Shown here: piece after piece, positions 5,168-63,802 of the stretch
How the letters are laid out: every line of letters starts with the position of its first letter
Numbering within the stretch: position 1 is the stretch's first letter
Assembly (NCBI RefSeq): GCF_964355755.1
Contig: NC_092673.1
Span: 29,447,648 to 29,511,647, forward strand
Origin: Antedon mediterranea
Taxonomy: Eukaryota; Animalia; Echinodermata
Reading direction: 5' to 3'
DNA: 64,000 bases
Position numbers and translations under genes: made by a program
The notes under the pieces: model-generated
The model's database searches: none
What the model saw: only the letters and a program-made list of their open reading frames with translations
Told to the model about the DNA's origin: nothing

Positions 5168-5385
5168 TTTCTTAGTTTTAGATCAAAAGACGATGACAGC
5201 ATTAACCAAATTGTAATACTCACTTATTTAGCACAGTTGTCTTATGGCTATTTTTGGCAAAACCTTACTTTATTTTTAATGAAGACGGAGCACTGTTTAT
5301 ACGGTTGCTAACTCATGATGCGCCCTCAAGCCCTTAGTCTCTGTATTATCAGTGACAATGACAACTCCTTTTTTTTATTTTGCAG

Positions 5386-5520
5386 AAGCAGTCGTAGCAC
5401 AAGACTTGTGTGAAGAACGCCCATGTCAAAATTATGGTGTTTGTGATTATGATTCATCAACACACACGTATACATGCGACTGTCGTGGAACGGGTCACGT
5501 AGGAGAAAACTGTACATTAC
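5386..5520 (+). CDS. Exon: probable signal-peptide end plus EGF-like domain 1
   Basis: ttttgcag|...|gtaagt. Encodes AVVAQDLCEERPCQNYGVC...YTCDCRGTGHVGENC (6-Cys EGF). VVA|QD resembles a signal-peptidase site, so the ATG exon is probably upstream of the window. Confidence 0.85.
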
Positions 5521-8500
5521 GTAAGTGTTTACAACTATAACAAAACGAAATAAAATATAATAGACTTAAGCTCTGTCTACACTATCACACTTTATGTGAC
5601 AACAAAATGTGATGTGCCCATATATGGACATCATGATGTCATATTAGTACCATAAGTAGGAATATCACTATAATATTACTTGGGCATATCATACTTTTTT
5701 TGTCAAACTAATTTGATAGTGTAGACAGAGCTTTAGGAAAAGAAGCAATCATTCGAAATCATTTCATAATGTGAATCCGGACTTCCATTGACAACGACAT
5801 TTCTATTTTAAATTGTCAGATTGTGCAGTAATAATCAACATTATATATAAAAAATTATATAAGTATAAATATTGTTTAAACAATCAACGAGGAAGGAAAA
5901 TTCCTACCTGATTCGACATTTAGCAAAAAGAGCGGCCATCACAACAATAAAGGATTATTTTGTTTTTGTACATTGTACTTCTTATTACTATATTACTATC
6001 TGTTTCACGTTGTTATTCATTTCGTCATTTTAGCAAATTCGTGTTCACCAAATCCTTGCGAAAATAATGGAGTGTGTAACATAACGGCAGCGGATTTCTC
6101 AACTTACGAATGTCTATGCCCTGGAACAGGTTATATTGGCACAGACTGCGAAATAGGTAAGTTTGTCTTTTTCTTTTATATATTTCTAATGCAATAACAA
6201 CTAAATGTTTACATAAACCTTTTTTTCTTATTAACACAGTAGCTAAAACAAACCGCAAAACTTGTTTGCCCAATATTATAGTGATATGACATCATCATGT
6301 CTATATATGTGCACATCACATTTTCTTGTCACATAAAGTTTGATAGTGTGGACAGAGCTTTAACCTTGATTTCCACGTTGAAGCAATGAAATGACGTACC
6401 TGTAAGCTCTCTGGGAGTAATTTGACCAATCACGACACGATGGATCATCAGAAATATCGCTTGTGGTTGGTCAACTTCTTGTGTTTTGCTTAAGTTGTTG
6501 CGTTACGTTAGTGGTAAGCATGGGGACTATTCACAATACCAATGTATCTTCTGTAATTGATGTTAATGTATATTATACCCACGCTTAACAAAAAAGAATG
6601 TAATTTTGTTTTGTATACAGATGACCCGTGCTCACCAAGTCCTTGTGAAAACAATGGGGTTTGTAGCTACAACTCAACAGACTACAGCTTTATGTGTAAT
6701 TGTGCTGGCACCGGTTACACTGGAAACATATGTGACGAAAGTATGTAATGATTGACTTTTTTATGCAATTTGTCAAATATGTAATCTTAAAGGGCAACAT
6801 AAGCACGTAAGCGCAACCTAAGCACGTAAGCGCAACCTAAGCACGTAAGCGCAACCTATGCACGTAAGCGCAACCTAAGCACGTAAGCGCAACCTAAGCA
6901 CGTAAGCGCAACATAAACACGTAAGCGCAATATAAGCACGTAAGCGTAACCTAGGCACGTAAGCGCAACCTAGGCACGTAAGCGCAACCTAATCACGTAT
7001 TAGCAACCTAAGCAAGTGCAACGAAAGTACTACTGTGATTTGACCATCATTTCAAAACATCAGTGCCTTATAATGTAACATCAAATAAAAGTAAATTTTA
7101 ACCCATGCCTATAATATGTTACCGATATTTTATGTTATTGCAGATGACCCCTGCTCTCCCAATATGTGTGATAATGGAGGTGTTTGCACTGCTACGAACA
7201 CAACAGAATTTGATTGTGATTGCTCTGGCACAGGAGCGAATGGAGAACTTTGTAATGAAAGTAGGAAAATGGAAAATTCTTCAATATATTGTTTTACAGG
7301 GGCACGCATTGTTCATATAATAGCATAATGTATTCAGGAGACTAATTCTTACGTCACACCTAATGGATATGACTAATGGATATTCATGTTTATTTTGTGA
7401 CGTCTCGCGTACTTATGTACGAAATATCGCGGGCGGGGCGGGCCCGTTTCTACTGAGCAATAGAATACGGATTTAAATACCGTACATTTTGAAATAGGCC
7501 TAACGGTACTTGGTAACAAAAACGGGTCCACATAAAAAGAACACATTTTAAATACTGGTTTAAAAACCCCAATTGATTCCGGTCTCGACCCATCGGTTTT
7601 AAAAACGTGTCGTATATTTTGCATCGTATTTTTCAAACATTAGAAATTGAAGGGGCCGAGTAAGGAGTAATATTATTGTAATTGTATTTAACTAATGCGG
7701 GTAGCTTTGCGTCAGGGAGTTGAGTAATTGGTCAGATGTTATATTATTAATTAACATATATTATATTATTTATTTTTATTACTGACTAATGAATTTTTGT
7801 TACATTACAGATGACCCGTGCTCTCCTTCCCCATGTAACAACGGTGGTGTTTGTACCACTTTCAACACAACAGAGTATACGTGTAATTGCGTAGGTTCAG
7901 GATTTCAAGGAGATCGTTGCGATCAGGGTAAGTAAATAATCAATATAGTTGACTGAAATGGATGAGTAAAACGCCTTTCTCAAAATAATTTGAAAAGTGT
8001 ATACTGAGGCCCAAATGCTTCCACATATTCTTTTACGACAGGTATATCTTTTCTTTACTCAGTTATTTTCGCCGATGTTATGTTTGTCCATGTGCAATGT
8101 ATCGGGTGTCGTATCGAGATGTATCGAGAAAAACTCGAAAACAGAGACACCCTATATAACGTAATATTGAGACGTTTTAGTGGGGGTCTCTGTTTTCGAG
8201 ATTTTCTCGAAAACAGAGACCCTGGGTCTCGGGTCTCTGGTCTCTGTTTTCGAGGTCTCTGTTTTCGAGACACCCGCAATGTATCGCAAAAAAGTCTTCA
8301 TTACATACTATTATATAGACAACTTTATGGACAGAATAATAATATGTTCTAGGTGGAGAGGGTTACTTTTTATTTTTACCGAACTTCTGCAGATCGATTA
8401 ATATAAATTAGGTCACATTTGGACATATAAAGGCTAGGTTTCACGAGTCCGTAGGCGCACGCCACGCATACTAACGCAAACCAAATTACATTAGGCCTAC

Positions 8501-11500
8501 CTTACACATCTGCCACAATTGTGGAAACCGACAATGTAAGAAAAAAATGAATTGTTTGCATCACTAATAACGATATGTGCCAAAAGACCAATACATAAGT
8601 AAAAGTAAACAAATTAGTTATGTCCGTCCTGGCGTTCCATACATTAGACCCGGGTTAATCGAACACAAAAACTCATCTAGCTAGAAATCAGTGCATTAAA
8701 AAAGCACATTCAGGCTTAGACTAGTAGGCCTAGGTTTTATTTAGTTAGTTAGAGATTTAGGACAGGTGGAAAGCTATATTTAAGATATAAAATAATGATA
8801 ATTATGCCGCCAATAATGCCTTAACACTGATAATAATGCAACATGTCACTGTGGCCGCTAGAGTTAGGCCCTGTTTCATTGTTTATTAGGCCATAATGTG
8901 ACTACAAATGGTGTTTATCTTCCTGCTCTTTCCTTGGTGGAATTGTGTGGCGGTGGGTGTACCCAAAGAATATTCTTTGGTGTACCCTAGGTTGGTATGA
9001 AGTGTCAATGTATGACGTGCCATATTCCCTGTACAGAATATCCTGGCGTCTATGATACGTATAGCGTCATATTTTTTCTCAATACTATATTGTAATTTAG
9101 TTTTCAATTGTTTTATAATGATTATTAATTACATCATATTCTGAGTCTGATTTTGTAATATGTAAGTAAGTGTCCATTTTTTTTTTCTTGGTGAAAAGGA
9201 AGTGTATTTTATATTCCTCCCCTGAATTTAATAGCCTCTAGCATGATTTTATCATCTATTTATTGCCATGTTTTTAAATTATATATATATATTTTTTTTA
9301 AATTGTAAACCCACGCAAGAAAAAAAAGTATTTTAGTTAACAATAATGAATGACTTTATTTTTTTTATTTGTAGGCCTAATTCTATCTGGTTTTTCTACA
9401 AATAAATAGATCTCTATTTTGTTTTCTCTGCAGCTGACCCTTGCTCCCCGTCACCCTGTATGAATGGGGGTGAATGTATGGATGAAGGAGGTGGCAACTA
9501 CACATGTGATTGTAGTAACACCAACTACTATGGTGATGATTGTGAAACATGTAAGTGCTACCTGCCATCTCTCGCGCATAATGCGTGTACAGTATGCATG
9601 AGTCTCGTGCAAGTCTGCCCATGAGTCTCATGCATGAGGGCTGTTATTTTTGGTCTCGCCTATTTCTTGAACATCCATAAAATTATTCAGAAAAAAACAT
9701 AAAAGAAAAAATTTAACTTGCCTATTTTGAAGAAAAAATAACATAGGCCTTGTTATCAATAAATTTAAACATAGATTAGCCAAAGCCTGGTGTTTATTTA
9801 AAATGGATACAGGGTTAGATCCAAGACACAACTTTAATTGCGCTGACTACTAGCTGCCTTATGGGAGTATGTTTTCATATGTGTTTGCTCCAAAAAATGA
9901 TCAGAGTATTATATGTGCAGCGCATTGTATTTTATGCTTGATCGCCTAACTACTCCATGGAAAATTCAACATAAAGGATGCAGTTTTTTGCAATTATATT
10001 GAGTTATTGCACTTTTTTCAATTATTGTCTCGTGCATTGGCCATTGAAAAAGTTAATGATAAAGTTTCTCTTGTACTTAATTTTCAGTTAACCCTTGCTC
10101 TGGAGCTGCATGTATGAATGGTGGGACTTGCAATGATCTAGGAAATGGCAACTTCACTTGTAATTGCACAAGTGTCTATGAGGGAGCAACATGTGAAACT
10201 TGTAAGTTGAACACAGTAATATTATACCTTGTCTGTTTTTGAGGTATTTATCCAATCAAAAATTCAAGCGGCTTTATATGTGTCCTAGCATTTTGTCAGA
10301 ACATTTTTCTTGCCAACTAATAATGAAATCATTTAAATGATATTTAATTCAGTTGTGTTATAAAAAACATAAATGTTTTGTAATACTTTGTATTATTTTC
10401 GTGACTCGACTCCACCTCGTTGAGCGGTAAATCTTTCAACACATGAAAATATTCACACAAGATTATTTATTTTTATAATGTAATATTTTTTTTATTATTT
10501 TTCATAATATGTAATTGACCTAATTTTTTTTTTCATAATATGTAATTGAGTGTAATATTGTTTATTTTTTAGATAATCCCTGTTTATTGGAGCCTTGTGA
10601 GAATGGTGAATGTTATATTCTTATGAATGTTGCAACTTGTAATTGCACAGGAACTGGCTATGATGGCACTGCGTGTGAACAAGGTATATTTAATACAGTG
10701 GCAGGCTTACAGTAGCTTAGTCTAGGCGTAGGCCTAGCCTCACATAATAGCAGATTTACAGTATGTGTTAACTTTTCATTATTATTTGCTTGGTTCCACA
10801 ATGGACACAACCCAGATATGTAAGCTTGCCGTGAGTAATGTTATCAATCACAACACGCTTGTGATTGGTCAACTCACTTGCTTCTAAATGGAAGCTTTAA
10901 TATTTCAGACTCTTTAGTGTGGACGCCTGTATTAGAATTGTATCTTGGAGATGCTTAGATTATTGGGAATGGTATGCAATCTGTGATGAGGAGAAAAAAA
11001 TAAGTGTACTATAAAACAAAGAAAGCCTGTCTCAGATGTTCTTGGTTGTATTTACAAACTGTTTTTATTTTCATTTAGATGTTGAGGATCCTGTGTTAAT
11101 ATGCCCCGGCCCATACTCGTACAACACACCACTAGGAGAAGCCAATATCACACTAGAAGATTTTGCAGTTAATGTAACAGTGTCTGATAATTCTGGAGAA
11201 ACCCTAAGTACTACATCAGACTTTCCTGCTAATGGTGTGTTTGTAATTGGAGAAACAACAATTACTTACGAAGCTCAAGATTCCACTGGTAACATGGGGT
11301 CATGCAGTGTTGTTGTTACTATATATGGTAAAATGTTTTAATTCTAATTATAAAAACCAAGATAAATATCTCACTGATAAACAATGAAACTTTTTAATCC
11401 AGAAACCCATACATTTTTACAAAATTGTTAAAAAACCTTCTTTATTAAGAATTAAATGACGATATGGAATGAAAAATGAAATAGATCTACTTCAGTTTCC

Positions 11501-14500
11501 TTCAAATGCTCTACAGACCATCTACCTAAAAGGGGATAGGATTGTAGAAAGCTATACATTTGTCACAAAATTAGGGTAGAGTTTAAAAATAATTATTTTT
11601 GGGGGATCTACCTCTTTTTTTACTTATTTTACCCTATTCTACCTTTTCACATCTGCATAAAATTGTTACAACTTGTTATAAGTTGTAATTAGGTTTGATC
11701 TCCTGACTTATTACATGTTTTCACACACGCATACGTGAAAAGAATCGCGCTATTTGATTACTATGATTGGTCAGTTAATACCAGGGCAATACATTACATT
11801 AAGAACTCGGAACATCTTGGAACAAAAACACAGGCCTCTTGTTGGTGTGTTTTTCTTCTAAGATTTCACAAGGGACCACTGTGAAATCATAGGAGATTTT
11901 CCACAAAATTGTCTTCACACTATGCAAACCTGGTTACAACTTGTTACAAGTTGTTACATTTTGCAGATGTGAAAAGGGTATAAGTAACCAAATTACCCTT
12001 CTTCAACTAAAGATATCCCTTCTAATGTTATACAATTGTTCTTTACAGATATGGAAAGTCCAGATATCACATGTCCATCGTCAGACACAGTAACAACCGA
12101 TGACGGTTTACCTGGAGCAGAGTATAACTACACAGTGTTGGTAGAGGATAATTCAAATGAAGTGATACCACCTGTGTGCTCTCTGTTATCTGGGTCACTG
12201 TTTCCAATCGGTGAAAACATGGTCATGTGTAATGCCACAGATTCATCTAATAACAATGCTTATTGTAACTTTACTATCACAGTTGAAGGTATGCAGCAAT
12301 ACAGATATTTTATTATCATAAAAACCAAACCTGTCATTATGGTGTATAACATCCTTGTTTGCGAAAAAGAAATATTTATTTTTAAATTTTGTAATTGTAT
12401 GAATGCGCCATCGCAAGTGTCTAAATTCATTCATTCATTTATTGATATCTATAATCTATAAATATACTTTTGTATTCGCTAGTAAACCTTTGTTGTTGCA
12501 AAAAAATCTCGCTAGCATATTGAGCAACCAAACACCAAGCAAGAAAATTAATTTAATTCTACAAAAAGTAGAATTTACAGGGATCAAACCTCAAGTACTT
12601 CTGCTAGACTAAAAAGTACAACCAGCACACATTTGCTAGTTTTTGAAGTTTATACAATTATGATGAATATACTAGAACTAGAACGGACATTTTGAGCTTA
12701 GAATTTCGTCTTCTTTTTTATTTTGTCAATTATGATAATTATATTCAATTAATTCTGATTATTACAGATGAAGAAGATCCGCTTATTACATGCCCTAGTG
12801 ACATTTATCTACTGAGCGACGTTGGAGTTAAAACACTGAATGTAACTTGGGATCCAGTTAATGCAACTGATAATTCAGGAATGGTTACCTTTACAAATGA
12901 ATACAACAGTGGTGATGCTTTCCCTGTTGGTACAACTGAAGTTATTTTTTATGTCGACGACCCTTCTGGAAACACAAATAATTGTTCATTTGATGTCCTA
13001 ATTAGAGGTAAGAGCAGCAGAATTTGAAGTCGCTATTTCCAATAAATGAATAGCATTCATTCATATTTTTAATTCTAATGTAAGACGATAATTTTTAAAT
13101 AGTTTTATATTTTTAACAGTTTTTTTTTATTTTTAACTTTTTATCTTGTATTCAATCTGTTATAATACTGCACGTTTTAAATTGTTGCAACATTTTTTAT
13201 TTTTGTTTTTTATTGTTGTTTTAATCTACCAAGCAAAGTGAATTTCCATTTTTATGGACAAATAAAATTTCTTGAATCTTGAATCTTTCGAGACGAGTAA
13301 GGCTGGTGTACTATTTCACACACAGCCACTGTCACAAAGTCATCATATAATATACTGGGTCCTCTGGGAGAACAGTTTTTGACTGAAGAGGCTACCCAGT
13401 ATAAAGAATAAATAATAACAAATAATAAAGTTACAAATAAAAACAATTAGGTAGGCCTACTATTAATGCCATCGCTGCCACCACGCCAGTGTTGAGGACA
13501 GTGCTCTACACATGGTAATCACACGAGAGACACGGGCATGACTATAAGGATCAACTTTTAATAACTCTTTCTGTAATATATCAACCGTAATGGTAATTAC
13601 AACTAGATAACAGCAAACATAAGAATGGTGCGCGTAAAGAGCGACATTGGTGTAGTGCTCAATTCACCACCCAAAAGGACTCCACCAGAAAGAAAGTCTG
13701 AGGAAAAAATAATAAGAAACAAGGTATACTTTATTAACTCAAATTCAAATGTCAAGCTAGCAGCTAATGTGTTGTGTTTTTTTTTAGCTAAAAAGACATA
13801 TTCAATTACTATGACATTCTATGAAATCAATGGAAATAATTACACATTCACCGATGCTCTGAACAATCAAACATCCGACACCTATATGAATTTGGAGAAT
13901 AGTGTGTGTGAATCTGTAAGTTTTTATTTATATTTTAAAATGAAATATAATGTACTGCAGTCTTTTTGTTTTACAAGAGTCATCTAATAATAATATTTAT
14001 TTGCTTGTTTCGACTTTTCATATCATTTTTTTTGTTTTCATTTATTTCCTATTATATGTGTTCTTGTTATACTGTAACATATGGTGAAAGTCAATAAATG
14101 AATTGGGATAGACACTTGCGATGGTGTCTTCATACAAGAATAGAAAATTTAAAAATAAATACTTATACAAAAAAAAGGGAAAAGAAAATTTGATTATTAT
14201 AGAGATGCAGTTCAACTTGGTCAGGGTGTAAGAACAACAAGTTAAGTTTAAACTCTCTTAAGTGTAAATCAATGCAATTGACTAGATTAACTCGGCATAG
14301 TAACAACTGCAGTGCATATTACACTTTTTTAAAGTACCTGTTAACTTTTGTTTTCTAGGTTTCTCACCTAAACCCAGATATGTGTACAGTAACGGACTTC
14401 ACAAGCGGTTCAGTTGTTGCTGACTTTACACTTGATTTTGAGCCAGATAATACTCTAGACTCTGTTGAGGCAATAGAGAACGCTGTTGAAACTAATTTTA

Positions 14501-41500: not shown

Positions 41501-42481
41501 GTCACATGACTCTGGTAACCTGCAATGCTACCGACAACTATGATAACACTGGAAACTGTACCTTCACAATCAACATCTATGGTAAGATTACAGATTTTTT
41601 AAACTGTTTTTAAATTGATTTTTTAACCTAAAATATATTCAAATGGTCTAAAGATTACTAGTAAAGAAAACCCAACAAGAGGTATGCATCAAGATGGTGT
41701 TTTTTTATTTCATAAAATGCAATTTAAGATTTTGTAACATGGGAAGTAAAAGCAACATGTTTCCATTATTTTATCTAACTGTAGATGATACACCTCCAGT
41801 AATGAGCTGTCCAAGTGATATAGACACATGTGCTGACACTAATTCAATAATGGCATCAGTTTATTGGGAACCAGTAAATGCTACCGACAATTGCTGTGAA
41901 TATGTCAACATAACATCAAATTACACATCTGGAGATTCTTTTGAGATTGGTGAAAATGTAGTAACATATTATGGAACTGACTGCAGTGAAAACAATGCCT
42001 CTTGTTATTTCAATATTAACGTGTTAGGTGAGTAATATTAGTATGACATAAGCAGTAGCTTTTATTTTTTATTTTTTTTATATTCTGTTATTATTTATGA
42101 TATTTACTTTTGTTTACTCGTCTGCATTTAGATTGTCAAGCTCCCAACTTGACCTGTCCTGATGACCTTACGTTTGATGCTGATGAAACATGCTATGCTT
42201 ATGCTAACTGGAGCGTGACAGCAGAAGATAATTATGATGGTGATGTTGATGTGATCTGTGATCGTATTTATGATAACTATGCTTTTGGTAACTACACAGT
42301 AGTCTGTAATGCATCAGACATGGCTGGCAACATTGCAAACTGCTCTTTTGAATTCTTTGTTGTTGGTAAGTAACCTTGTTACTTGTTTTTTTTTTTAGCT
42401 GTTTGACAACATCAGGCCGTCATTTACTGTTCAGTTGACATATATATTGCTTTTGCATGAAAGAGACCTACAACTTATGTG

Positions 42482-42521
<40 letters not shown>

Positions 42522-54500: not shown

Positions 54501-57500
54501 GCTCTATATGTATGGGATCAAAATAATTCAAATCACATAATATATTTATTATACAGACTTTAATTCGAAATTAGCATTATACTTGATTTTATTGTTATAG
54601 ATTCCGAAGGTCCTGTCTTAAATTGTCCTGGTGATCTTGGACCATTTGAAGTAGATGATAATTGTATGGCATATGTTGAATGGAACGTAACAGCAACAGA
54701 CAACAATGATGGAAGTGTTCCAGTAGTTTGTGACTTGATGCCTGGGGATTTTCCCGATGGCAACTATACAGTGAATTGTACAGCTTCAGACTCATCAGGA
54801 AATACAGCCAACTGTTCTTTTAATGTTGATGTGTATGGTAGGTATTGCTTGATGAATCCATTATAAAATGACTCAGACCTTTGTGATGGCATAGTCTGAT
54901 TGGTAGATAAGTATTTTTAACACCCTTGCGTTCTTTATTTATAGATTCTATTGCACCGGAGATTACATGCCCATCAAATGTATCTATGTGCTCACAATCT
55001 GGGACATCTACAGACCTGGCATATTGGGATTCACCCATAGCTACAGATAACTGCTGTGATGACATCACTTTATCTAGTGACATTGATAATGGTACAGCAC
55101 TTGATGTTGGTGTATTGCATGAAGTTGTCTATACTGCAACAGACTGCAATATGGTGGAAGCACAATGTTCATTTACAGTATTTTTGGAAGGTAAAATTCA
55201 GGTTTTGGTTCGATAAATATAATAATGGTAGTCTTATATAGCACCTAATACAATGTGCTTTACACTCAAAATTGATCCATAAAATATCGTGGAGCCATTT
55301 ACACTGCTCCATTCTCCATCACTGGGAAGCTCCCATATGAGAGCTCGCCGGAACAGTATTCACAGGAGCTTGAGTGAAAAAAACCCATTATTTTCAGATT
55401 TGGAATAGACTAGATTATGTGTGGCAGTCTTCATATTATATAATATTTGAATTATGTTTTACATTATTTTTAAATAATTGTAATAATAACGCATATAATT
55501 ATTTTATAGATTGTGATGCTCCTGAAATAAATTGTCCTGATAATCTTGGACCATTTGAAGTAGATGATAATTGCACAGCATATGTTGAATGGAACGTAAC
55601 AGCAACAGACAACAGTGATGGAAGTGTTCCAGTTGTTTGTGACTTGATGCCTGGGGATTTCCCTGATGGCAACTATACAGTTTCTTGTTCAGCATCTGAT
55701 TCGGATGGAAATCCTACAACATGTTCTTTTAATTTCTATGTAAATGGTGCGTCTTTTTATATTACCTTTTACTGTCCATCAGTTTGTAGCCTAATGTTCT
55801 TTGTTACCATCAATAGACCCACCATTGCAAGGCAATAAACCCATTTAAGCATTAAACATGTAGTTTTACAAATAATATAGTATGTTCTATATAAGTATGT
55901 TTTAAATACAGTTGAGTTAATTGGTTAAGTAACTACTTCAAGGCGCAGAGAATCAAAACGTTTATTTTATTCATACATTCATATCATTGCAATCTAAACC
56001 CTTGTGTTCCACTGCATTGAAACACTACATAGATTATATTATGTTCGTTAGTTACTGTGTATGGTTTTTTTTATGAATGTTTATATGTATGTTCTTTTAT
56101 TGTTCTCTCTTAATAGATAATATTGCACCGGAGATTAATTGTCCATCAAATGTATCTATGTGCTCACAATCTGGGACATCTACAGACCTGGCATATTGGG
56201 ATTCACCCATAGCTACAGATAACTGCTGTGATGATATCTCTATATCTAGTAACATTGATAATGGTACAGCACTTGATGTTGGTGTATTTCATGAAGTTGT
56301 CTATACTGCAACAGACTGCAATATGGTGGAAGCACAATGTTCATTTACAGTATTTTTGGAAGGTAAGTCTGGGTTTCGTGGTATGAACAGAATTGGATTA
56401 ATTAAAACATATTAAAGTATGTTAATTCTTACAATTTTAAAGAAATGTTTTATTTATATAGCCTGAGATGATACATACTTGAGTTTTGTGTATCTAACTA
56501 TCATCCTTCAGTCTTTTGTATTTAATTGTTTTAAGTATAATAAAATTCAGCACATACAATTATCTTATAGATTGTGATGCTCCTGTATTAAATTGTCCTG
56601 ATAATCTTGGACCATTCGAAGTAGATGATAATTGCACAGCATATGTTGAATGGGAAGTAACAGCAACAGACAACAGTGATGGAAGTGTTCCAGTTGTTTG
56701 TGACTTGATGCCTGGGGATTTCCCTGATGGCAACTATACAGTGAATTGTACAGCTTCAGACTCATCAGGAAATACAGCCAACTGTTTATTTAATTTCCAT
56801 GTATATGGTAGGTATTTTATCAGGTTTTCTAAATCATCATTGTTACCCTATTACTAATTAATTTATGTTTGCAAAATGTGCTTGGCAATTGTTTGGGCTT
56901 TACCTATTATCACTCGTGGAATAAATAATATTATTATCATCTAAATGGTTCTGATTTTTCAGATGCAACAGGTCCAGTACTGACTTGTCCCTCGGTAGTT
57001 GAAGGATGCAATGACGATGGACGAGCCAATGCTACTGTCATTTGGAACTTTGAAAATCCAACAGACAATTGCTGTGATAATATTAATGCAGTCTCAAGTA
57101 ACCAAAACGGAAGCACTTTTGATATTGGAACTACAGTAGTTACGATTGAAGCTGCAGATTGCAATAACAACTTACAGATTTGTGAATTCAATGTTATTGT
57201 TAATGGTAACTCTCACTTTTGTTTTCTATATTTTCCATACTGTACAGAAACCAATTTATTGAAATCCTCTTTATAAATTACGACACAAAATAATAAATGA
57301 TAGGAGAGACACTTTATCAAATCTATTTTGACAACTTTTATATTTGACAGATTGTGAAGATCCTGTAATCACTTGTCCCGATTCAGTTGAGTTGGTCGCT
57401 GGCCCTCAATGTACTGCTGTGTACACTTGGTCAGACCTTAATGTTGAGGACAATGACCCAGACTCAATTGAGGTTGAATGTGACTACACATCTGGAGAAG

Positions 57501-60500
57501 CATTTGACGTTGGTACAACTTCTGTGGGTTGTACAGCTGTGGACAGTGCAGGCAATCAAGATAATTGCACATTCACTGTCTATGTATCTAGTATGTGATT
57601 AGCTGTTTTTTTACAATGTCAAACAACTAAAGTATATGGCAACAAAGTCTAAGGCTCTGTACTTAGTAATTCTAACCCACTGATCTATTAGGGAAAGTTC
57701 TGCAACCTAAATAGTTAATTCCCAAATATACATGCAGTATAGTTCTAGTTGTCCCATGACCTAGAGGATTGTAGGGGTGTAGCAGATAAGAGACAGTGCA
57801 CCATGTCTTTCCAAAGGGGAATTAGAATTTGTACTTATCATGACACAATACATGGCATAAGCCATATCTCCCAGTGGTGCCTATCTTGCAGGGTTTTTAA
57901 TTTATTTGTATTTATTTCCACTTATTCTTAGATTGTTCGTATCCTACTGTTGAATGTCCTGATGATGTAGAATTGGAAGCTGATGAAGATTGTAATGCTA
58001 CTCTTTATTACAATGTCACTGCAACAGACACCGATGGCAATACTCTTGACTATGAATGTTCTTATGAGAGTGGAGTGGAGTTTAGTTTAGGAGAAACAGA
58101 CGTAGTTAACTGCTCAGCCACTGATAATGGTGGTCGTGTAGGATACTGTCTCTTTGAAGTAGCAGTAATAGGTGGGTGTACACATCTTAATTTAAAATAT
58201 AAATTTATTAACTGTGTATTAAATGAGTATGCAGCACAGTATCTAAATGCTGTATGTGGTTCTTATATGCTTCATGAAATAGGAGTTTTTAACTTTTACT
58301 GTATATTTTCCATGGCTGTATACACATGACAATGGTCAATTATAATTGATATTTAGTTTTGTGTATTTAGAATTGTTTTTGTTTTTATTTTAGATACTAC
58401 GTCTCCCGTCATAGAATGCCCATCAGACCTGTCAGTGTGTTCTGAACCTGATATCAATGGGAAAATGGTTTCTTGGAGTATGCCGAATGCTACTGATTTG
58501 TTCTGTACAAACATCACCATTAGTCCTAATACAAGTTATCAATTTTTGGAAGTAGGCACACATCCTATTACATACTCTGCAGTAGATGGTTCTGGTAACA
58601 GTGAAAACTGTTCATTTAATGTCATAGTTATGGGTGTGTATTACATTTCATTTTATATTATATCATATTTCAAACATTATGCTACCTTAAATTGCATCCA
58701 TTGTCTCTATAACACCAACAGTGCAAACTGTTCATTTAATGTCATAGTTACAGGTATGTTTTCATATTTCAAACATTGGGCTACCTTTAAATTGCATCCA
58801 TTTTCCCCAAATGAACTTGATGAAGGAATAGTGTTTATAGCTTTCACGTTCTTTGACATAATATAGAGATAGAGATAGATGTGTACCAGAATTAAACTCT
58901 CTGTTTTTTGTATGCTCCAACACCCACGCATATCTTTGTAAATGCGGTGTAGTGCAACCGACTTTCATGAATTACGTGAATGTCCTCTTACTAACGCCAA
59001 CATTCTAATACTGTAGATCTTAGTTCATTTATTTGTCCAAAAGGAAATTCATGTTGACATACAATTTCTAAAAAAAATTAGTTAAAGGTTAGTAAATACA
59101 GAAAAAGATAATAAAATTTAAACTATACAACAGAGCAACAAAATTTCTCTGATGAACAATGAATTACCTGAGTTGGTTAAAAGGCTGATTGAATATGGAA
59201 TAAAAGATTTAAGGAATTTGTTTACAGTGCTGCAGCTTCTTCTGTTTATTATCAATTGAAACTTATTCTCAAAATTTGTTTTTGACTCTTCAAAGTTAGT
59301 GAAATATTGTCTTAGTTTGTTTTTATATTGATATTGTACTTCATTTGTGCCATGTTGGACACTCAGTTATCAATATGGAATGTAAGAAAATAAAGATTTG
59401 TAAATACACAGAGCGACACAGGAAGCATAGACCATTGCCATGAATAAATGTTTAATTTCAATTGCTAATTATTATTTCAGATTGTGATGCTCCACAGTTG
59501 ACATGTCCTGATAACTTTAACCTAACTGCTGATGAAAATTGTGAAGCTTCTATCACATGGGACCCAATTGATGTGTATGATAATTCTGGAGATATTCTAA
59601 CTGTTGAGTGTGATTTTGACAATGGTACTCTTGTTACAACTGGAGATTACAATATAGCGTGCCGGGCGCAAGACTCTACTGGCAACAATGGCACCTGTGA
59701 ATTTAACGTTGTAGTTGCAGGTAATGTTTATTGTTAAAAGAGGATCATTAATTATATGATCATCATTAAAGATGATCATATCCTTTTTATAAAATTTGTG
59801 TTCTGTAGTTCTATAGTTGTAGACAATTGTTTAATTGTTATAATTTTGGAATTGTTTTTTTGTTGTTGGTAAGATTACATTATTATGTGCAAACACGTTT
59901 AATTCTGTTTCAACATTCAGGGATGCATGAAACAGCATGTCAATCATCATCAGATTTGTCATATCATACTGAAATCAGTTCTTTTTTTTGTTAACTTCTA
60001 GATACAACAGCACCAGTATTCACATGCCTAACAATGATAAACAAGTGTAACGACTATGGCCTTCCTTATGCTACCAACTTGACATTCTTTGACAGTATCA
60101 CAGACAACTGTTGTCCTCAAAGTATATCAATGTCTATGGAAGAAACAATCAGCCAATTCGATATTGGAACCACAAATGTTACAATAACTGTTGAAGATTG
60201 TAATGGAAATGTAGAAATATGTTCAACTTCTGTTAACGTTGAAGGTAAGACCATAGAGATATTATAGTAAATATATCTATGATAAGACTCAGTGGCCTAA
60301 TAGTTATGACCGCTCAATAGCTAGACCCAGGAGGCCCAAAGTTTAATTGATTCCAGAGCATGAGAAGCCCCAATGTAACTACCAGCGTGGAGGGCCTCTT
60401 AGGATTGCTAAACCAGGAGCATTTTTTCCCTTAAGCAAGCTTTTTTTATTTATTGTCATATTTTAAAATTGTGAAATCTTTAAAAAAGGTACATATTTAT

Positions 60501-63500
60501 TACATAAAAAGTCTGCACACTATTAAGATACACAAATCAGGTAGCACCTGAATGTATTAACAGAGTTACATTGCAATATTACATCATTATTAGACTGAGG
60601 ATGTGTCCTTTGTTGAGCCAGTTACCTATAATATTCTATGACATTATATACAAAAAAATGTGTGTTCTTTATGCCCTAAACAGATGAGTGTTGCTTTGTG
60701 ATTGATTGTGATGCTGTTTGTTTGAAATATCAAAATATCATTAAGCTCCACTATCAAACTAGTTTGACAAAAAAGTGTGATGTGCCCAATAGTATGATGT
60801 CATCGTTTCCATATATTTGCACATCACTATTTTTTGTCACATAAAATTTGATAGTGTAGACAGAGCTTTACTCTTGTTTACCACCAATTACAACTATTGG
60901 ATGCATGAAGGTGCTACCTAACTTTTTAACACATTCATGCATTTATGTTTTGATGTACATTTCAGATTGTGATGCTCCACAGTTGACATGCCCTGATAAT
61001 TTTAACCTAACTGCTGATGAATTTTGTGAGGCTTCTATTACATGGGATCCAATTGATGTGTATGATAATTCTGGAGATATTCTAACTGTTGAGTGTGATT
61101 TTGACAATGGTACTCTTGTTACAACTGGAGATTACAGTATTGAATGCCGGGTTCAGGACTCTACTGGCAACAATGGCACCTGTGAATTTAACGTTGTAGT
61201 TACAGGTAGTTATTATTAAAGTTTCAAACCTGTCCTAAATAGTGTGTGCATTAGTTCTACGTGTTGGTGCAAATTCTTGATATGGATTATAATTTGGTTT
61301 TACAACAATCAATGTGAAAGTTGTTTTATTGCAGTCTGACAACTGTTTGACTACTTATGATTACATTTGCAATATGTATTTTTAAATAAAAGAGTAATGC
61401 TATGCCAAATTGTTATGTTATGCTCTTCTAAGGATTATAAATTGGTTGTATTGTTACTTGTTATTACTTCTTTATTATTATTATTATTATTTATTGCCAA
61501 AAACCAGTTACAAACAAACAAAACACAGAAACTAAGGGAGTAGGCAGGAACCTAAAAGTGAACCTAATCACTATAACAAGAGTTCAGGTTCCGTACTCCC
61601 AAAGTAACAACAATGATATAAAATAAACTATATAAAAATATTTAAAAAACAAAAAGACGAATCAACAGTGTCAATATAAAATAAACGGATAAAATACATA
61701 ATAGTCGATTCAACAAAGTCAATATAAAACATGTGATTTAAGTGAATTTAAAAGTGAAAATAAAAGTGAACCTAATCACTATAACAAGAGTTCAGGTTCC
61801 GTACTCCCAAAGTAACAACAATGATATAAAATAAACTATATAAAAATATTTAAAAAACAAAAAGACGAATCAACAGTGTCAATATAAAATAAACGGATAA
61901 AATACATAATAGTCGATTCAACAAAGTCAATATAAAACATGTGATTTAAGTGAATTTAAAAATATTTGAAAACTGTCTAAAATTAAAGAATTTTTAATCA
62001 TTTCCGGTAATTCTTCTTATTCCTATTTGGTGAGATAATTGCAAAATTTACCATTTTCTCCAATGTATCATGCTATGCAAAATTATTATTTTTTTTCTAT
62101 TTTTTAAACTTCTAGATACTACAGCACCAGTATTCACGTGCCCAACAATGGTGAACAAGTGTAACGACTATGGCCTTCCTTATGCTACCAACTTGACGTT
62201 CTTTGACAGTATCACAGACAACTGTTGTCCTCAAAGTATATCAATGTCTATGGAAGAAACAATCAGCCAATTTGATATTGGAACCACAAATGCGACAATA
62301 CTTATTGAAGACTGCAATGGAAACACAATAATATGTACAACTTTAGCTTATATTGAAGGTAAACACATAGCCTATGTACAGCCACAGAAAACACAAAAAA
62401 CATGAAATCTGTCTATTCACAAAAGAATCTATACTGTATTTCACTTTACTTCTGTTTTATTTTTTGTTACCTTCTTAGTTTAGTTGTTTTGTATTTGTTG
62501 TCTTGTTTTGCCCTGCATATGCTTGGTTCTCCAAGCTGTGACCTGGGATGTTTGTTACATTCTTAGTTTAGTTGTTTTGTATTTGTTGTCTTGTTTTGCC
62601 CTGCATATGCTTGGTTCTCCAAGCTGTGACCTGGGATGTTTGGTACCTTCTTAGTTTAGTTGTTTTGTATTTATTGTCTTGTTTTGCCCTGCATATGCTT
62701 GGTTCTCCAAGCTGTGACCTGGGATGTTTGTTACCTTCTTAGTTTAGTTGTTTTGTATTAGTTGTCTTGCTTTGCCCTGCATATGCTTGGTTCTCCAAGC
62801 TGTGACCTGGGATGTTTGGTACCTTCTTAGTTTAGTTGTTTTGTATTTATTGTCTTGTTTTGCCCTGCATATGCTTGGTTCTCCAAGCTGTGACCTGGGA
62901 TGTTTGTTACCTTCTTAGTTTAGTTGTTTTGTATTAGTTGTCTTGCTTTGCCCTGCATATGCTTGGTTCTCCAAGCTGTGACCTGGGATGTTTGGTACCT
63001 TCTTAGTTTAGTTGTTTTGTATTTGTTGTCTTGTTTTGCCCTGCATATGCTTGGTTCTCCAAGCTGTGACCTGGGATGTTTGTTACATTCTTAGTTTAGT
63101 TGTTTTGTATTTGTTGTCTTGTTTTGCCCTGCATATGCTTGGTTCTCCAAGCTGTGACCTGGGATGTTTGTTACCTTCTTATGTTTTTACTTTACAAATC
63201 CTTGCCAAATAGGAGGGTTGTTTGAAAGTTTTCCGTTTTGGAATTTTCTTATGTGGGGGATTTCTGAATAATAGTTTAATTGTATTAAACAGATGCCAGT
63301 AACTGGGATTTTCATAATTTAAGCAGAATTCAATTGAAATATACGTATTCCACAAGAATTTCTTCTTACAAAATTCCACTTTAAAGTTTTCCTCTCACCA
63401 TAGTATACCAATGGCACCCTATTATTAACATGGAATTTTTTTAATAATTAGGATCTTAACTCAAACAAATTGCAAGATACATTTTCTGGTGTTTGTATAT

Positions 63501-63802
63501 GTCGTGACGAAATGTGTTCCACTTATTGCTAAACATTACAGAAATATAAATTATTATTTCAGATTGTGATGCTCCACAGTTGACTTGTCCTGATAATTTT
63601 AACCTAACTGCTGATGAAAATTGTGAGGCTTCTATCACATGGGACCCAATTGATGTGTATGATAATTCTGGAGATATTCTTACTGTTGAGTGTGATTTTG
63701 ACAATGGTACACTTGTTACAACTGGAGATTACAATATAGCGTGCCGGGTGCAAGACTCTACTGGCAACAATGGCACCTGTGAATTTAACGTTGTAGTTAC
63801 AG
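5386..63802 (+). CDS. Giant multi-exon extracellular protein: 8 EGF + 3 HYR + SEA + >=90 HYR (hyalin-like/HYR-repeat protein); partial, extends beyond both ends
   Basis: 103 exons with polypyrimidine-AG acceptors and GT donors. All are phase 1-1 except the SEA pair (1-0, 0-1), and they splice in frame to ~23.7 kb. The HYR consensus D..P.i.CP...W....atDN....G.t.v...atD..gN...C.F.v.v recurs in every HYR exon. Confidence 0.9.
5569..5732. mobile_element. MITE family A, PIF/Harbinger-like (TTA TSD)
   Basis: TIRs AGCTCTGTCTACACTATCA...TGATAGTGTAGACAGAGCT, flanked by TTA at 5566-5568 and 5733-5735. Related copies lie at ~6265-6360, ~49191-49476 and ~60744-60867. Confidence 0.85.
6034..7927 (+). CDS. 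EGF-like exons 2-5
   Basis: Phase-1 exons 6034-6156, 6621-6740, 7144-7260 and 7811-7927, each with the pattern xxCSPxxCxNxGVC...CxCxGxGxxGxxC. The 7811 exon is missing from the ORF track. Confidence 0.9.
6265..6522. mobile_element. Partial MITE A abutting a decayed MITE B copy
   Basis: 6265-6360 matches family A and ends in tgatagtgtggacagagctt. 6362-6522 carries the ttgaccaatcac...gtggttggtcaa palindrome shared with the insert at 49225-49372 and with 10788-10897. Confidence 0.6.
6794..7015 (+). repeat. 19-bp minisatellite (AAGCACGTAAGCGCAACCT) x ~11
   Basis: Direct tandem repeat with period 19 and few substitutions. Confidence 0.95.
8103..8276. mobile_element. MITE with 8-bp TSD (hAT- or Zisupton-like), internal CTCGAAAACAGAGAC repeats in both orientations
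   Basis: TIRs CGGGTGTC...GACACCCG with a perfect flanking duplication CAATGTAT at 8095-8102 and 8277-8284. Confidence 0.85.
9434..10683 (+). CDS. EGF-like exons 6-8
   Basis: Phase-1 exons 9434-9550 (DPCSPSPCMNGGECMDEGGGNYTCDC), 10088-10201 (NPCSGAACMNGGTCNDLGNGNFTCNC) and 10573-10683 (NPCLLEPCENGECYIL...CNCTGTGYDGTAC). None is in the ORF track. Confidence 0.88.
11079..13007 (+). CDS. HYR exons 1-3 (canonical type, before the SEA domain)
   Basis: Exons 11079-11327, 12049-12288 and 12768-13007 (DVEDPVLICP..., DMESPDITCP..., DEEDPLITCP...FPVGTTEV...CSFDV). They lack the extra cysteines of the later array. Confidence 0.9.
11641..11979. mobile_element. MITE (~340 bp) with ~55-bp imperfect TIRs
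   Basis: Left end accttttcacatctgca...ttgttacaacttgttataagttgtaattaggttt is the reverse complement of right end aaacctggttacaacttgttacaagttgttacattttgcagatgtgaaaagggt. Confidence 0.75.
13284..13412 (+). mobile_element. 3' fragment of the Deu/Nin-type SINE
   Basis: Matches 29002-29115 (tctttcgaga.gagta...cacagccact...ctggg.cctctgggaga.cag.tttgactgaagagg..acccagtataaa). Confidence 0.7.
13788..14524 (+). CDS. SEA domain, two exons, with GSVV autoproteolysis motif
   Basis: Exon 13788-13915 (KKTYSITMTFYEINGNNYTFTDALNNQTSDTYMNLENSVCES, phase 1-0) plus exon 14359-14524 (VSHLNPDMCTVTDFTSGSVVADFTLDF..., phase 0-1). The F..L....S..Y..L pattern and FxxG-SVV are SEA hallmarks. Confidence 0.8.
14785..14865 (-). 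mobile_element. L2/SINE-type 3' tail remnant
   Basis: Minus strand reads tgtacagcgcttagag...aaacgctttataaat followed by (TTA)n, which resembles the L2-type 3' stem-loop and tail. Confidence 0.45.
15505..18130 (+). CDS. HYR exons 4-8 (start of alternating Cys-rich array)
   Basis: Exons 15505-15735, 16433-16681, 16873-17112, 17366-17617 and 17891-18130. Confidence 0.9.
18626..20761 (+). CDS. HYR exons 9-14 (six-exon unit 1)
   Basis: Exons 18626-18868 (DDTPP), 19113-19346 (DCQAP), 19467-19712 (DIISP), 19831-20070 (DNEAP), 20191-20430 (DEREP) and 20522-20761 (DCEPP). Confidence 0.9.
21027..23060 (+). CDS. HYR exons 15-20 (unit 2)
   Basis: Exons 21027-21269, 21370-21603, 21708-21953, 22060-22299, 22422-22661 and 22821-23060. 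Confidence 0.9.
23327..25361 (+). CDS. HYR exons 21-26 (unit 3)
   Basis: Exons 23327-23569, 23669-23902, 24007-24252, 24361-24600, 24723-24962 and 25122-25361. Confidence 0.9.
25628..27590 (+). CDS. HYR exons 27-32 (unit 4)
   Basis: Exons 25628-25870, 25970-26203, 26306-26551, 26657-26896, 27008-27247 and 27351-27590. Confidence 0.9.
27800..30144 (+). CDS. HYR exons 33-38 (unit 5)
   Basis: Exons 27800-28042, 28142-28375, 28539-28784, 29203-29442, 29563-29802 and 29905-30144. Confidence 0.9.
28813..29120 (+). mobile_element. tRNA-derived SINE with Deu/Nin-like central domain, inserted in a unit-5 intron
   Basis: Pol III A box TGGCCGAGCGG (~28821) and B box GGTTCGAGGC (~28876). Core TCGGATGAGGACTATAAACCGTAGGTCC...TTAAAGAACC...GAGTAGGGGGTTACCCCGGTGT. 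Absent from the paralogous introns of the other units. A decayed copy lies at ~45645-45752. Confidence 0.8.
30348..32365 (+). CDS. HYR exons 39-44 (unit 6)
   Basis: Exons 30348-30590, 30694-30927, 31099-31341 (one codon shorter), 31436-31675, 31790-32029 and 32126-32365. Confidence 0.9.
32571..34819 (+). CDS. HYR exons 45-50 (unit 7)
   Basis: Exons 32571-32813, 32911-33144, 33416-33661, 33759-33998, 34166-34405 and 34580-34819. Confidence 0.9.
34957..41581 (+). CDS. HYR exons 51-56 (unit 8, expanded by intronic satellite, LINE fragment and DNA transposon)
   Basis: Exons 34957-35199, 37213-37446, 40327-40572, 40662-40901, 41011-41250 and 41342-41581. Confidence 0.88.
35218..36003 (+). repeat. 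Minisatellite built from CCTGTATA / CCTGTATGCG, with ~80-100 bp higher-order repeats
   Basis: Direct tandem repeats. The block cctatacttgtatgcacctgtatacctgtatgtgcacctgtatatatctgtatgcg recurs about five times. Confidence 0.95.
36004..36597 (+). mobile_element. 5'-truncated LINE 3' end (RTE-X-like) inserted into the minisatellite
   Basis: Encodes SSKLRYYKMFK...RALSQLRLGTLQLEVERGRW...RLCKICNIN*VEDEYHFVTVC..Y...R (C-terminal CCHC-type region), followed by a 3'UTR, AATAAA and a (TGAA)n tail. Confidence 0.8.
36598..37090 (+). repeat. Continuation of the CCTGTAT minisatellite (variant units CCTGTATGTACA / CCTGTATGAACA)
   Basis: Same core motif as 35218-36003, more degenerate toward the 3' end. Confidence 0.92.
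37496..40243. mobile_element. Non-autonomous Academ-like DNA transposon (2.75 kb)
   Basis: Termini TAGTCCAGTAAA...TTTACTGGACTA with a 3-bp TSD TAT (37493-37495, 40244-40246). Long subterminal repeat blocks occur twice on the left and three times, inverted, on the right. The empty site is visible in the unit-7 paralogous intron (~33190, ttttattcttaat). Confidence 0.85.
41785..45527 (+). CDS. HYR exons 57-64
   Basis: Exons 41785-42027, 42132-42365, 42633-42878, 43029-43268, 43839-44087, 44595-44834, 44948-45196 and 45288-45527. Confidence 0.88.
42486..42516. repeat. (TA)n microsatellite
   Basis: About 15 TA units. Shorter runs lie at ~635-650 and ~49502-49522. Confidence 0.9.
44129..44520. 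mobile_element. Probable truncated Kolobok-like non-autonomous element
   Basis: Begins TTAA|AGATGTATTATCCC and is CpG-richer than neighbouring introns. The matching right terminus was not found. Confidence 0.35.
45974..54181 (+). CDS. HYR exons 65-79 (older, diverged six-exon periodicity)
   Basis: Exons 45974-46249, 46385-46618, 46810-47055, 47160-47399, 47508-47747, 48170-48409, 48903-49145, 49779-50012, 50148-50393, 50549-50785, 51247-51486, 51883-52122, 53110-53352, 53480-53713 and 53936-54181. Confidence 0.88.
47852..47984. mobile_element. Palindromic MITE remnant
   Basis: Outer inverted repeat ttctccactaggcgaa...ttcgcctagtggaaaa, with inner inverted repeat gaatcaacagcgtcagctta / taagctgtcgcttttgattc. 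Confidence 0.65.
49191..49476. mobile_element. MITE A copy with nested MITE B (~49225-49372)
   Basis: Family-A ends (tta|agctctgtct...gtagacagagct|tta) are interrupted by an insert with inverted ends gcttggttcccactag...ctaataggaaccaagt. Confidence 0.75.
52318..52720 (-). mobile_element. Decayed LINE 3' fragment (RTE-X-like)
   Basis: Minus strand reads ...LVHFLKVAWEKRSEL..*, then a 3'UTR, AATAAA and a (TTA)n tail at ~52318-52337. Confidence 0.4.
54601..58633 (+). CDS. HYR exons 80-88
   Basis: Exons 54601-54837, 54945-55190, 55510-55746, 56117-56362, 56571-56807, 56963-57205, 57351-57590, 57932-58171 and 58394-58633 (alternative donor possible at 58753). Confidence 0.87.
59023..59435 (-). mobile_element. 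Decayed LINE 3' fragment (Rex1/Babar- or L2-like)
   Basis: Minus strand encodes VNKFLKSFIPYSISLL, resembling the T.R...SF.P.AI.LLN RT terminus, followed by a 3'UTR with AATAAA. Confidence 0.45.
59481..63802 (+). CDS. HYR exons 89-93 (two-exon repeat); gene continues past the window
   Basis: Exons 59481-59720, 60002-60244, 60966-61205, 62116-62358 and 63563-63802. The last ends in a phase-1 GT donor with no stop codon. Confidence 0.88.
60744..60867. mobile_element. MITE family A copy
   Basis: tta|agctccactatcaaac...tttgatagtgtagacagagct|tta. Confidence 0.75.
61470..62012 (-). mobile_element. 5'-truncated L2/CR1-type LINE 3' end with internal 208-bp tandem duplication
   Basis: Minus strand reads ELPEMIKNSLILDSFQIFLNSLKSHVLY*, a 3' hairpin (gggagtaggcaggaacct...aggttccgtactccc), AATAAA and a (TAA)n tail. 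61553-61760 is repeated at 61761-61961. Confidence 0.7.
62463..63182 (+). repeat. 88-bp tandem repeat x ~8
   Basis: Unit tttgttaccttcttagtttagttgttttgtatttgttgtcttgttttgccctgcatatgcttggttctccaagctgtgacctgggatg, period 88, near-identical copies. Confidence 0.95.

Follow-up and report, generated by a model that had tools for sequence, protein, structure and literature searches.

A 103-exon locus of Antedon mediterranea predicted to encode a calcium-stiffened, disulfide-stapled rod of HYR domains

The question raised by this locus is what a single run of EGF-like, SEA-like, and HYR exons would make, be it a spring, a secreted filament, or an anchored rod, and whether one protein is made at all. 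We moderately favor a membrane-anchored, Ca2+-stiffened, disulfide-locked rod of more than 0.3 micrometres formed by the acidic EGF/SEA-like/HYR chain.

RESULTS

The window, that is, the whole 64,000-nucleotide stretch analyzed, carries 103 exons on its + strand (5386..63802), totaling 23,682 nt and 7,893 codons with 0 stops, in the order 8 EGF, 3 HYR, one SEA-like, and 90 HYR domains (Table 1). This confirms the earlier note, which had read about 7,900 codons in 103 in-frame exons, open at the window end, with an EGF-HYR-SEA-(HYR)90+ order. The first pass was made by an independent exon caller (8 EGF and 93 HYR exons); the pair of SEA-like exons and a corrected donor for exon 87 (end = 53352) were added manually. 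Our SEA-like call rests on a sub-threshold hit plus a GSVV motif. All 102 introns are GT-AG (89 to 2,880 nt; median, 197), exons end in phase 1 throughout except for a single phase 0 within the SEA-like domain, and a six-frame HMM search of the window found no further HYR or EGF copies. Exon 1 starts with AVVAQ, resembling the end of a signal peptide; no ATG exon was found in the window, and none of the 15 candidates from a signal-peptide exon scan of positions 1 to 5380 was convincing. A phase-1 donor closes the last exon, and the gene therefore runs on beyond the window: the frame is still open, the C terminus lies outside, and exon 103 retains a spare distal cysteine whose partner exon is expected further on.

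Table 1. Exon groups of the locus
Feature	Position	Strand	Support
Exons 1-8, one EGF-like domain per exon	5386..10683	+	Exon caller, Pfam, X8 contig cover
Exons 9-11, three HYR domains of the head, lacking staple cysteines	11079..13007	+	Pfam HYR, 42.6-65.5 bits; spliced contig
Exons 12-13, SEA-like, GSVV as possible self-cleavage site	13788-13915, 14359-14524	+	Sub-threshold Pfam hit, manual calling
Exons 14-18, first part of alternating A/B array, predicted stapled	15505..18130	+	Exon caller, cysteine pattern
Exons 19-72, nine recent copies of 6-exon unit	18626..44834	+	Exon/intron identity, pN/pS
Exons 73-90, older copies of 6-exon unit	44948..54837	+	Exon-bounded X8 pieces
Exons 91-103, divergent A/B pairs, every junction predicted stapled	54945..63802	+	X8 cover to exon 101

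The Pfam check that had been proposed placed 17 of the 19 HYR exons tested (PF02494) and 4 of the 5 EGF exons tested above the curated cutoff, while the second SEA-like exon, in which the GSVV motif is present, stayed below it (19.9 bits, E 8.4e-4; cutoff, 26.4). The product was also claimed to be very acidic and rich in glycosylation sequons, and so it is: over 7,893 aa we counted 1,320 D+E for 39 K+R, with 7.2% Cys, and 356 N-glycosylation sequons versus 134 +- 10 (maximum, 158) in 200 shuffles. Altogether, the reading as an extracellular HYR glycoprotein is supported. No hydrophobic segment (maximum 19-residue hydropathy, 1.44) and no RGD or furin-type site occurs in the 7,893 aa, nor any Pro/Thr/Ser-rich unfolded region in the window. 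None of the 8 EGF domains fits the hydroxylation consensus of calcium-binding EGF, and 1 of 8 fits the O-fucose consensus. Of the 38 pieces of an in silico trypsin digest, only 3 are both 7 to 40 aa long and sequon free; with few usable tryptic peptides and models split by gene finders, standard methods would hardly see such a protein.

Along the array, HYR domains of two cysteine types, A and B, follow each other in alternation, with one exception to the strict A/B order; the earlier note had missed this pattern. Of 91 HYR junctions, 77 carry a spare cysteine on both sides, 14 on neither side, and 0 on one side only, and a rule matching each distal cysteine with the next domain assigns 518 of the 520 cysteines of HYR domains. 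Since the distal spare cysteine is always matched proximally in the next domain, the pattern predicts serial interdomain disulfide staples; moreover, the cysteine count is odd in 26 of 93 domains, so that intradomain pairing cannot absorb all of them. The rule is directional, with 0 mismatches of 43 for the next domain against 25 of 43 for the previous one, 25 to 26 of 41 to 42 at other offsets, and a mean of 17.3 (minimum, 8) in 10,000 shuffles. The domains being duplicates, it represents about 5 to 6 independent events, not 91. Within the 6-exon unit, 5 of 6 junctions are predicted to be stapled and 1 is unstapled. In the crinoid Anneissia japonica the rule is kept at 107 of 112 junctions, the 5 others being truncated model starts (2) or shortened loops (3), and the last A-type domain lacks its distal cysteine before the SEA domain of one protein (P0003) and before an unstapled run in another (P0007). 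The same cysteine pairs could instead join two chains. An interdomain cysteine staple in an alternating HYR array, predicted here from co-occurrence, would be new: among titles and abstract starts, we found no literature on this gene or on interdomain disulfides of HYR arrays, and HYR and hyalin are absent from the main text of PMC12716839.

It is quite improbable, in our view, that the locus comprises several genes, alternatively spliced cassettes, or an array expanded by misassembly, with no 7,900-aa protein made. The 6-exon unit spans about 2.2 to 2.5 kb when insertion free, and the nine recent copies share 87 to 99.3% identity in exons and 84 to 99.3% in introns; an identity of 99.3%, in exons as in introns, between the units at exons 25 and 31 is what misassembly might produce. 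However, no exact repeat shared between units exceeds 446 nt, and 200 exon pairs gave a pN/pS of 0.46. In addition, contig depth at repeat exons is several-fold above that at single exons in 4 of 4 runs, although depth is no copy number. Spliced contigs from one sample (X8), whose RNA label is a guess (none of the matching runs listed is on record as RNA), follow the predicted boundaries from exon 9 through exon 96, in a comparison covering the window up to 19.4 kb and from 43 kb onward. One contig joins exons 9-10-11 (X8 record 25), one GT..AG joint links exons 72-73, all 8 pieces listed in 43000-62400 are confined to single exons, and cover reaches exon 101. Boundary-matched splicing together with mutually differing units thus makes a pseudogene or a misassembly unlikely. 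In the runs compared no contig spans the whole gene, symmetric phase-1 exons could be skipped in frame, and tails differ between A. japonica isoforms, which would suit several genes or cassettes; yet neither a stop nor a head exon interrupts the 103 exons, single-exon skipping would leave cysteines unpaired, and the strict A/B order is broken only once. The splice-joint tables were swamped by intronic repeats.

The HYR domain is predicted to be an Ig/cadherin-like beta-sandwich that follows its neighbor without a linker. The modeled single domain reached a pLDDT of 91.6, and a 305-aa tandem a pLDDT of 90.5 with a strand crossing the junction and a pTM of only 0.59. The best structural match was the cadherin-like domain of staphylococcal SraP (Z 8.3, rmsd 2.0 over 74 residues), tied at this Z with PKD and Ig domains; at E<=0.001 nothing was matched by Foldseek, the best PDB sequence match had an E of 4.6e-4, and that of SraP was weak (E 0.083). 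Aligning residues 59-143 with 572-663 puts HYR Asp1, as judged from the ends of the aligned range, on the SraP Ca ligands Asp573 and Asp661, and the complete acidic set (D1, D-N, D85) is present in 87 of 93 domains. According to the available text of PMC4047093, the SraP CDHL stalk is a rigid rod projecting the binding head, each junction binding a single Ca2+ through an N-terminal Asp, an Asp-Asn pair, and an Asp further along. The likeness lies in fold and in acidic ligands at junctions, whereas SraP is bacterial, has two such domains, and is described in that text without disulfide staples. The Ca2+-stiffening suggested earlier is therefore judged likely, predicted fold and ligand positions both matching SraP. 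HYR, which has no close solved relative, may be read structurally as a single-calcium cadherin-like module with disulfide-lockable junctions.

A titin-like reading, in which the protein stretches as a spring or shock absorber by unfolding its domains under load, seems highly improbable. Extended Ig rods do align with the tandem model, among them titin I65-I70 (Z 8.4, rmsd 11.3), and staple cysteines are missing at 12 junctions. However, all 93 domains have both Cys9 and Cys93, and this invariant first-to-last pair clamps about 65 of 80 residues, leaving about 15 outside, so that unfolding would yield little extension. The rod is likely a stiff, barely extensible spacer. Human titin has about 34,000 aa, so that 7,893 aa is about one-quarter of it and the label "titin-scale" given earlier overstates the size. 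The comparison with titin serves for scale alone, the mechanics being predicted to be the opposite of a spring. The suggested length of several hundred nm agrees with the predicted rod.

The closest relatives are fragmented "hyalin-like" or uncharacterized A. japonica models (XP_033118182, XP_033115967, XP_033122073/4, XP_033125732-4, and XP_033096231), for which the sources searched record no function. The search for the same architecture in other echinoderms that had been advised found the EGF-HYR-SEA-like-HYR head order in P0002 and P0007 (52% and 48% identity over 363 columns). The 6-domain unit and the cysteine rule are also shared, with 66 to 71% identity for exon 25. The A. japonica models differ in being fragments of 305 to 4,755 aa with at most 57 HYR domains and automatic names. 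The fragmentation by gene finders that was foreseen is illustrated by XP_033122073 and XP_033122074, consecutive models on one scaffold, the fragments being linked solely by shared scaffolds and the order of their accessions. The type closing the P0003 array is represented by exons 79 and 85; exon 79 pairs with P0003_9 (SH-aLRT 96) in a quick domain tree (81 columns, 35 of 93 window HYR domains plus a subset of P0007, 56 of 114 inner branches open) from which only this pair was used.

Other giant HYR arrays were compared (Asterias XP_033626662; Lytechinus XP_041454283, "mucin-3A-like"; Antedon mediterranea XP_071961171; Acanthaster XP_022111822). Like the window gene, these and sea-urchin hyalin have long HYR chains (45 to 57) in which the invariant Asp positions are the same, and several carry a membrane segment at the C terminus, but their domains hold about 2 (or 4) Cys each, with staple cysteines essentially absent, and they have far fewer sequons and fewer than 93 HYR domains. 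Echinoderm arrays of 45 to 57 HYR are already in databases, and the window array is the longest among those compared. Hyalin proper consists of hyalin repeats in the available text of PMC9382459, and the window gene differs from it by its 8 EGF domains and SEA-like domain.

DISCUSSION

The earlier note left the chain "secreted or tethered." It is rather improbable that the product is secreted as a hyalin-like filament of a matrix (egg coat, larval or adult cuticle, adhesive, or skeletal matrix) and lacks any membrane anchor, the spare cysteines perhaps cross-linking chains. Consistent with this reading are the 7,893 aa devoid of a hydrophobic segment, the strong acidity, as in biomineral matrix proteins, which are often very acidic, and the possibility that SEA cleavage frees the head. 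In the accessible part of PMC9382459, hyalin builds extraembryonic matrix and the sea-star footprint proteins Sfp5 and Sfp7 contain hyalin domains. Against it, the A. japonica tails of P0003/P0004 run SEA-Thr-rich-SEA-TM, the final 1,188 aa of P0007 share 63.6% identity with the stalk of an adhesion GPCR (P0183) with GAIN/GPS and secretin-type 7TM, and the stapled array of P0095 gives way to unstapled HYRs; other echinoderm giant HYR arrays (P0009, P0012, P0013, P0015) have a strong C-terminal hydrophobic segment; and the next-domain rule already consumes all but 2 of 520 cysteines. As the visible array ends of relatives are a membrane anchor or an adhesion-GPCR-like tail, tethering is the likelier of the two options. 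A profile of 10 late exons, a weak search limited to proteins of 143 to 2,000 aa, turned up no relative that extends beyond the exon 95-103 types. The anchor of the rod may be an adhesion-GPCR tail, a plausible proposal short of a probable one; a SEA-mucin single-pass tail is conceivable, if somewhat doubtful.

We propose that the anchored rod would keep its EGF/SEA head well away from the cell and transmit force to the anchor without stretching. At each junction, one Ca2+ would be bound by Asp1, the Asp-Asn of TDN, and the Asp of ATD, as in SraP. The distal Cys of a B-type domain would bond to one Cys of the CC of the next A-type domain, and that of an A-type domain to Cys2 of the B-type domain that follows; 12 junctions of the array would stay unstapled and act as hinges. 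With a net charge near -1,280 and some four N-glycans on each domain, the rod would be a charged bottle-brush, possibly placed on an apical epithelial surface, e.g., cuticle or tube feet. Such a two-type alternating staple over 90 domains would be a simple stiff-rod design with periodic hinges.

A bolder extension, which we hold to be unlikely, is that the 7,900 residues encoded here are the N-terminal part of an adhesion GPCR of about 9,000 to 10,000 aa, larger than ADGRV1, whose Ca2+-stiffened, serially stapled stalk would act as an inextensible lever and carry touch or flow force from more than 0.3 micrometres away to the GAIN domain; with a 7TM tail it would be the largest GPCR known. The long N-terminal ectodomain of adhesion modules (EGF, SEA-like, HYR) is present and is not specific to adhesion GPCRs. 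Long-stalk receptors of the ADGRV1/VLGR1 type differ by Calx-beta repeats where the window has HYR; the A. japonica HYR adhesion GPCR XP_033096234 is listed with them, and GAIN and 7TM are not seen in the window.

Bacteroidetes surface proteins seem to have arrived at a similar staple. Their giant "gliding motility-associated" members carry up to 66 HYR domains, with a distal Cys and a DNC Cys positioned like the B-to-A staple of the window, but with a single domain type, a single staple type, and no A/B alternation. With cysteines masked, 41 of 43 A-type and 35 of 46 B-type window domains scored higher on an animal profile, by small margins, and convergence is therefore likelier than transfer; horizontal acquisition of the staple from bacteria was not favored. 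The bacterial distal Cys is missing from 51 of 232 last domains versus 102 of 2,787 internal ones.

RESULTS AND DISCUSSION

The earlier note had proposed 103 in-frame exons and about 7,900 codons without a stop, and a splice-site and motif caller run independently of that exon list led to the same gene: it returned 8 EGF and 93 HYR exons, which with two SEA-like exons and one donor set by hand amount to 103 exons (23,682 nt, 7,893 codons, no stop) and introns that are all GT-AG (102/102). A six-frame profile search of the window yielded no extra domain copy. The domain assignment stood for HYR and EGF, confirmed by Pfam in 17 of 19 and four of five exons tested, respectively, while the SEA match scored under the cut-off. 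The chain holds 1,320 acidic against 39 basic residues, and its noted richness in N-glycosylation sequons was borne out by 356 sequons versus 134±10 in 200 shuffles. Exon 103 terminates at a phase-1 donor. Judged from its sequence, the start of exon 1 may be a signal-peptide end; no start exon was found in the window upstream of it.

The cysteines of the array follow a strict rule. Alignment of the 93 HYR domains resolved ten main cysteine columns, with Cys9 and Cys93 invariant, and two types that alternate after the SEA-like domain: the A-type, with CC after TDN and a cysteine after ATD, and the B-type, with cysteines at columns 22, 50, 81, and often 2. Because columns 50 and 81 co-occur (46/47), as do column 86 and the double cysteine (43/43), we read them as internal pairs. 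What remains is a spare distal cysteine in one domain and a spare proximal cysteine in the domain that follows it, and among 91 junctions both are present in 77, neither in 14, and one alone in none. Counting this predicted inter-domain disulfide (staple), pairing accounts for 518 of 520 cysteines; the leftovers are in exon 82 (lost partner) and exon 103 (window edge). Moreover, the match is directional, with mismatches in 0 of 43 cases with the next domain versus 25 of 43 with the previous one, and 26 domains have an odd cysteine count. In Anneissia japonica, the rule is kept at 107 of 112 junctions, and terminal A-type domains have lost the distal cysteine. Since the units are duplicates, the rule represents about 5 to 6 independent events. 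When mapped on the predicted strands, the distal cysteine comes after the second strand; the proximal cysteines lie in the TDN loop and last hairpin, positions compatible with end-to-end bonding in the model. Exon 82 has lost one internal-pair cysteine, leaving the sole unpaired cysteine within the array, and in exon 61 the second loop cysteine is shifted (CYEC, not CC).

Bacteroidetes arrays carry a similar cysteine pair in every domain. Such motifs number 0 to 3 per protein in 16 named animal proteins whose arrays are unstapled. In P0167, P0169, P0017, and P0008 (bacterial or unnamed giant HYR surface proteins), nearly every domain has a distal and a DNC cysteine, which may form an undescribed bacterial inter-domain staple. 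As judged from literature listings and the databases searched, the serial two-type predicted staple and the array length are new.

A single-domain HYR model (pLDDT 91.6) and a 305-aa tandem model of an A. japonica relative (pLDDT 90.5, pTM 0.59) are both predicted beta-sandwiches without linkers. The SraP cadherin-like domain was the top structural match, with Z 8.3 and an rmsd of 2.0 over 74 residues; PKD and Ig domains reached an equal Z, and Foldseek gave no match at E≤0.001. In the SraP stalk, each junction binds one Ca2+, through Asp573, Asp601, Asn602, and Asp645 or Asp661, Asp690, Asn691, and Asp734, and the rod curls upon Ca2+ removal (PMC4047093). Aligning tandem residues 59-143 to SraP 572-663 matched Asp573 and Asp661 to the first Asp of each of two successive HYR domains (range ends only), a profile alignment set TDN and ATD opposite the SraP motifs with weak significance, and 87 of 93 domains have a complete set of candidate Asp/Asn ligands. 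Such folds span 3.5 to 4 nm per domain, from which we estimate an array of 0.33 to 0.37 micrometres or more. Most likely, the protein serves as a stiff spacer and as a tether for force.

The A. japonica relatives have two array endings. In P0003/P0004, the array closes with the type of exons 79 and 85 (68% identity; sister pair, SH-aLRT 96), followed by SEA, a Thr-rich stretch, SEA, TM, and a tail; a single-pass mucin of this kind is a possible anchor for the window gene. In P0007, which has the window gene's head, stapled HYR domains give way to unstapled HYR, EGF, and Ig before the chain stops; over 1,188 aa this tail shares 63.6% identity with P0183, an HYR-EGF-Ig-GAIN-7TM receptor, whose accession adjoins that of P0293 (stapled array) on the same 83-kb scaffold. 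An adhesion GPCR is our tentative first choice, by a small margin over the single-pass mucin; a secreted or other form is less likely. Neither ending is shown for the window gene, because its array runs 18 domains beyond exon 85 in types without a close match. Sea-star tube feet bear a glycocalyx-like cuticle over microvilli (PMC6122182), and such a cuticle is a plausible candidate home.

Querying exon 25 gave six proteins among 46 candidates, all of them "hyalin-like" models of the crinoid A. japonica (66 to 71% identity), and the window therefore probably comes from a feather star. P0002 shares the head as well (62.5% to P0007; window 52% to P0002 and 48% to P0007). The expected fragmentation by gene finders is seen in XP_033122073 and XP_033122074, consecutive models on one scaffold. 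Among the best 150 of 21,365 matches from 1.84 billion representatives, arrays reach 45 to 57 HYR in named echinoderm proteins and up to 66 in unnamed or bacterial ones; the 375 proteins collected by length-limited searches include no array of 93 or more HYR. The gene is a member of the echinoderm HYR-array surface proteins, present in databases and uncharacterised.

Nine runs contain part of 15400-25300, none recorded as RNA. Contigs of four runs were compared with 5200-19400, and those of X8, whose RNA label is a guess, also with 43000-62400; none of them (one sample for the latter) spans the gene. X8 record 25 carries exons 9, 10, and 11 at adjacent positions and is therefore spliced. Its depth, 60.9, recurs on the second SEA exon, and EGF exons 2, 3, 5, 6, and 7 have 51.1 in common, which suggests shared contigs. 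In 43000-62400, each of the eight X8 pieces listed falls inside one exon, exons 72 and 73 are connected by one GT..AG joint, and exons 97, 99, and 101 carry variants. Pieces of X1 match near-exactly, and this run is not independent evidence because it may be the window's source. The gene is real and expressed in at least one sample (X8, with its guessed label).

The nine recent 6-exon units are 87 to 99.3% identical in exons and 84 to 99.3% in short introns, with a longest exact repeat of 446 nt and pN/pS of 0.46 over 200 pairs. In four of four runs, contig depth, which is not a copy count, is several times higher on repeat exons than on single ones and fits a real multi-copy array.

Coordinates of individual exons, repeats, and mobile elements
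Feature	Position	Strand	Detail
LINE, near-complete	812-5182	-	
LINE further frame	812-1141	-	
LINE ORF2, endonuclease-reverse transcriptase	1145-3766	-	RVT_1 E 1.6e-35
LINE ORF1, coiled-coil	4412-5182	-	
Interspersed repeat	about 5565-5735, 6270-6375, 49375-49480, 60790-60885		introns 1, 2, 81, 100
Intronic tandem repeat	6794-7014		19 bp x 11.6
Exon 61	34957-35199	+	
Minisatellite blocks	35217-37092		intron 61
Two-orientation repeats	37500-40200		intron 62
Exon 82	49779-50012	+	
Copy of exon 98 3' end	58717-58750		34 nt, 97% identical
Intronic tandem repeat	61553-61961		208 bp x 2, 100% identical
Intronic tandem repeat	62463-63186		88 bp x 8.2

The LINE retrotransposon comes to within about 200 bp of exon 1 and probably sits in the intron 3' of the missing start exon. 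The copied exon 98 end, in the next intron with its own GT donor, is possibly an alternative donor remnant. In intron 61, two TGTATAC-type blocks surround about 590 bp of unrelated sequence that by eye looks like a retroelement fragment, and the intron 62 segments, also seen by eye, suggest a foldback or MITE-like insertion. The interspersed repeat is short and very high-copy.
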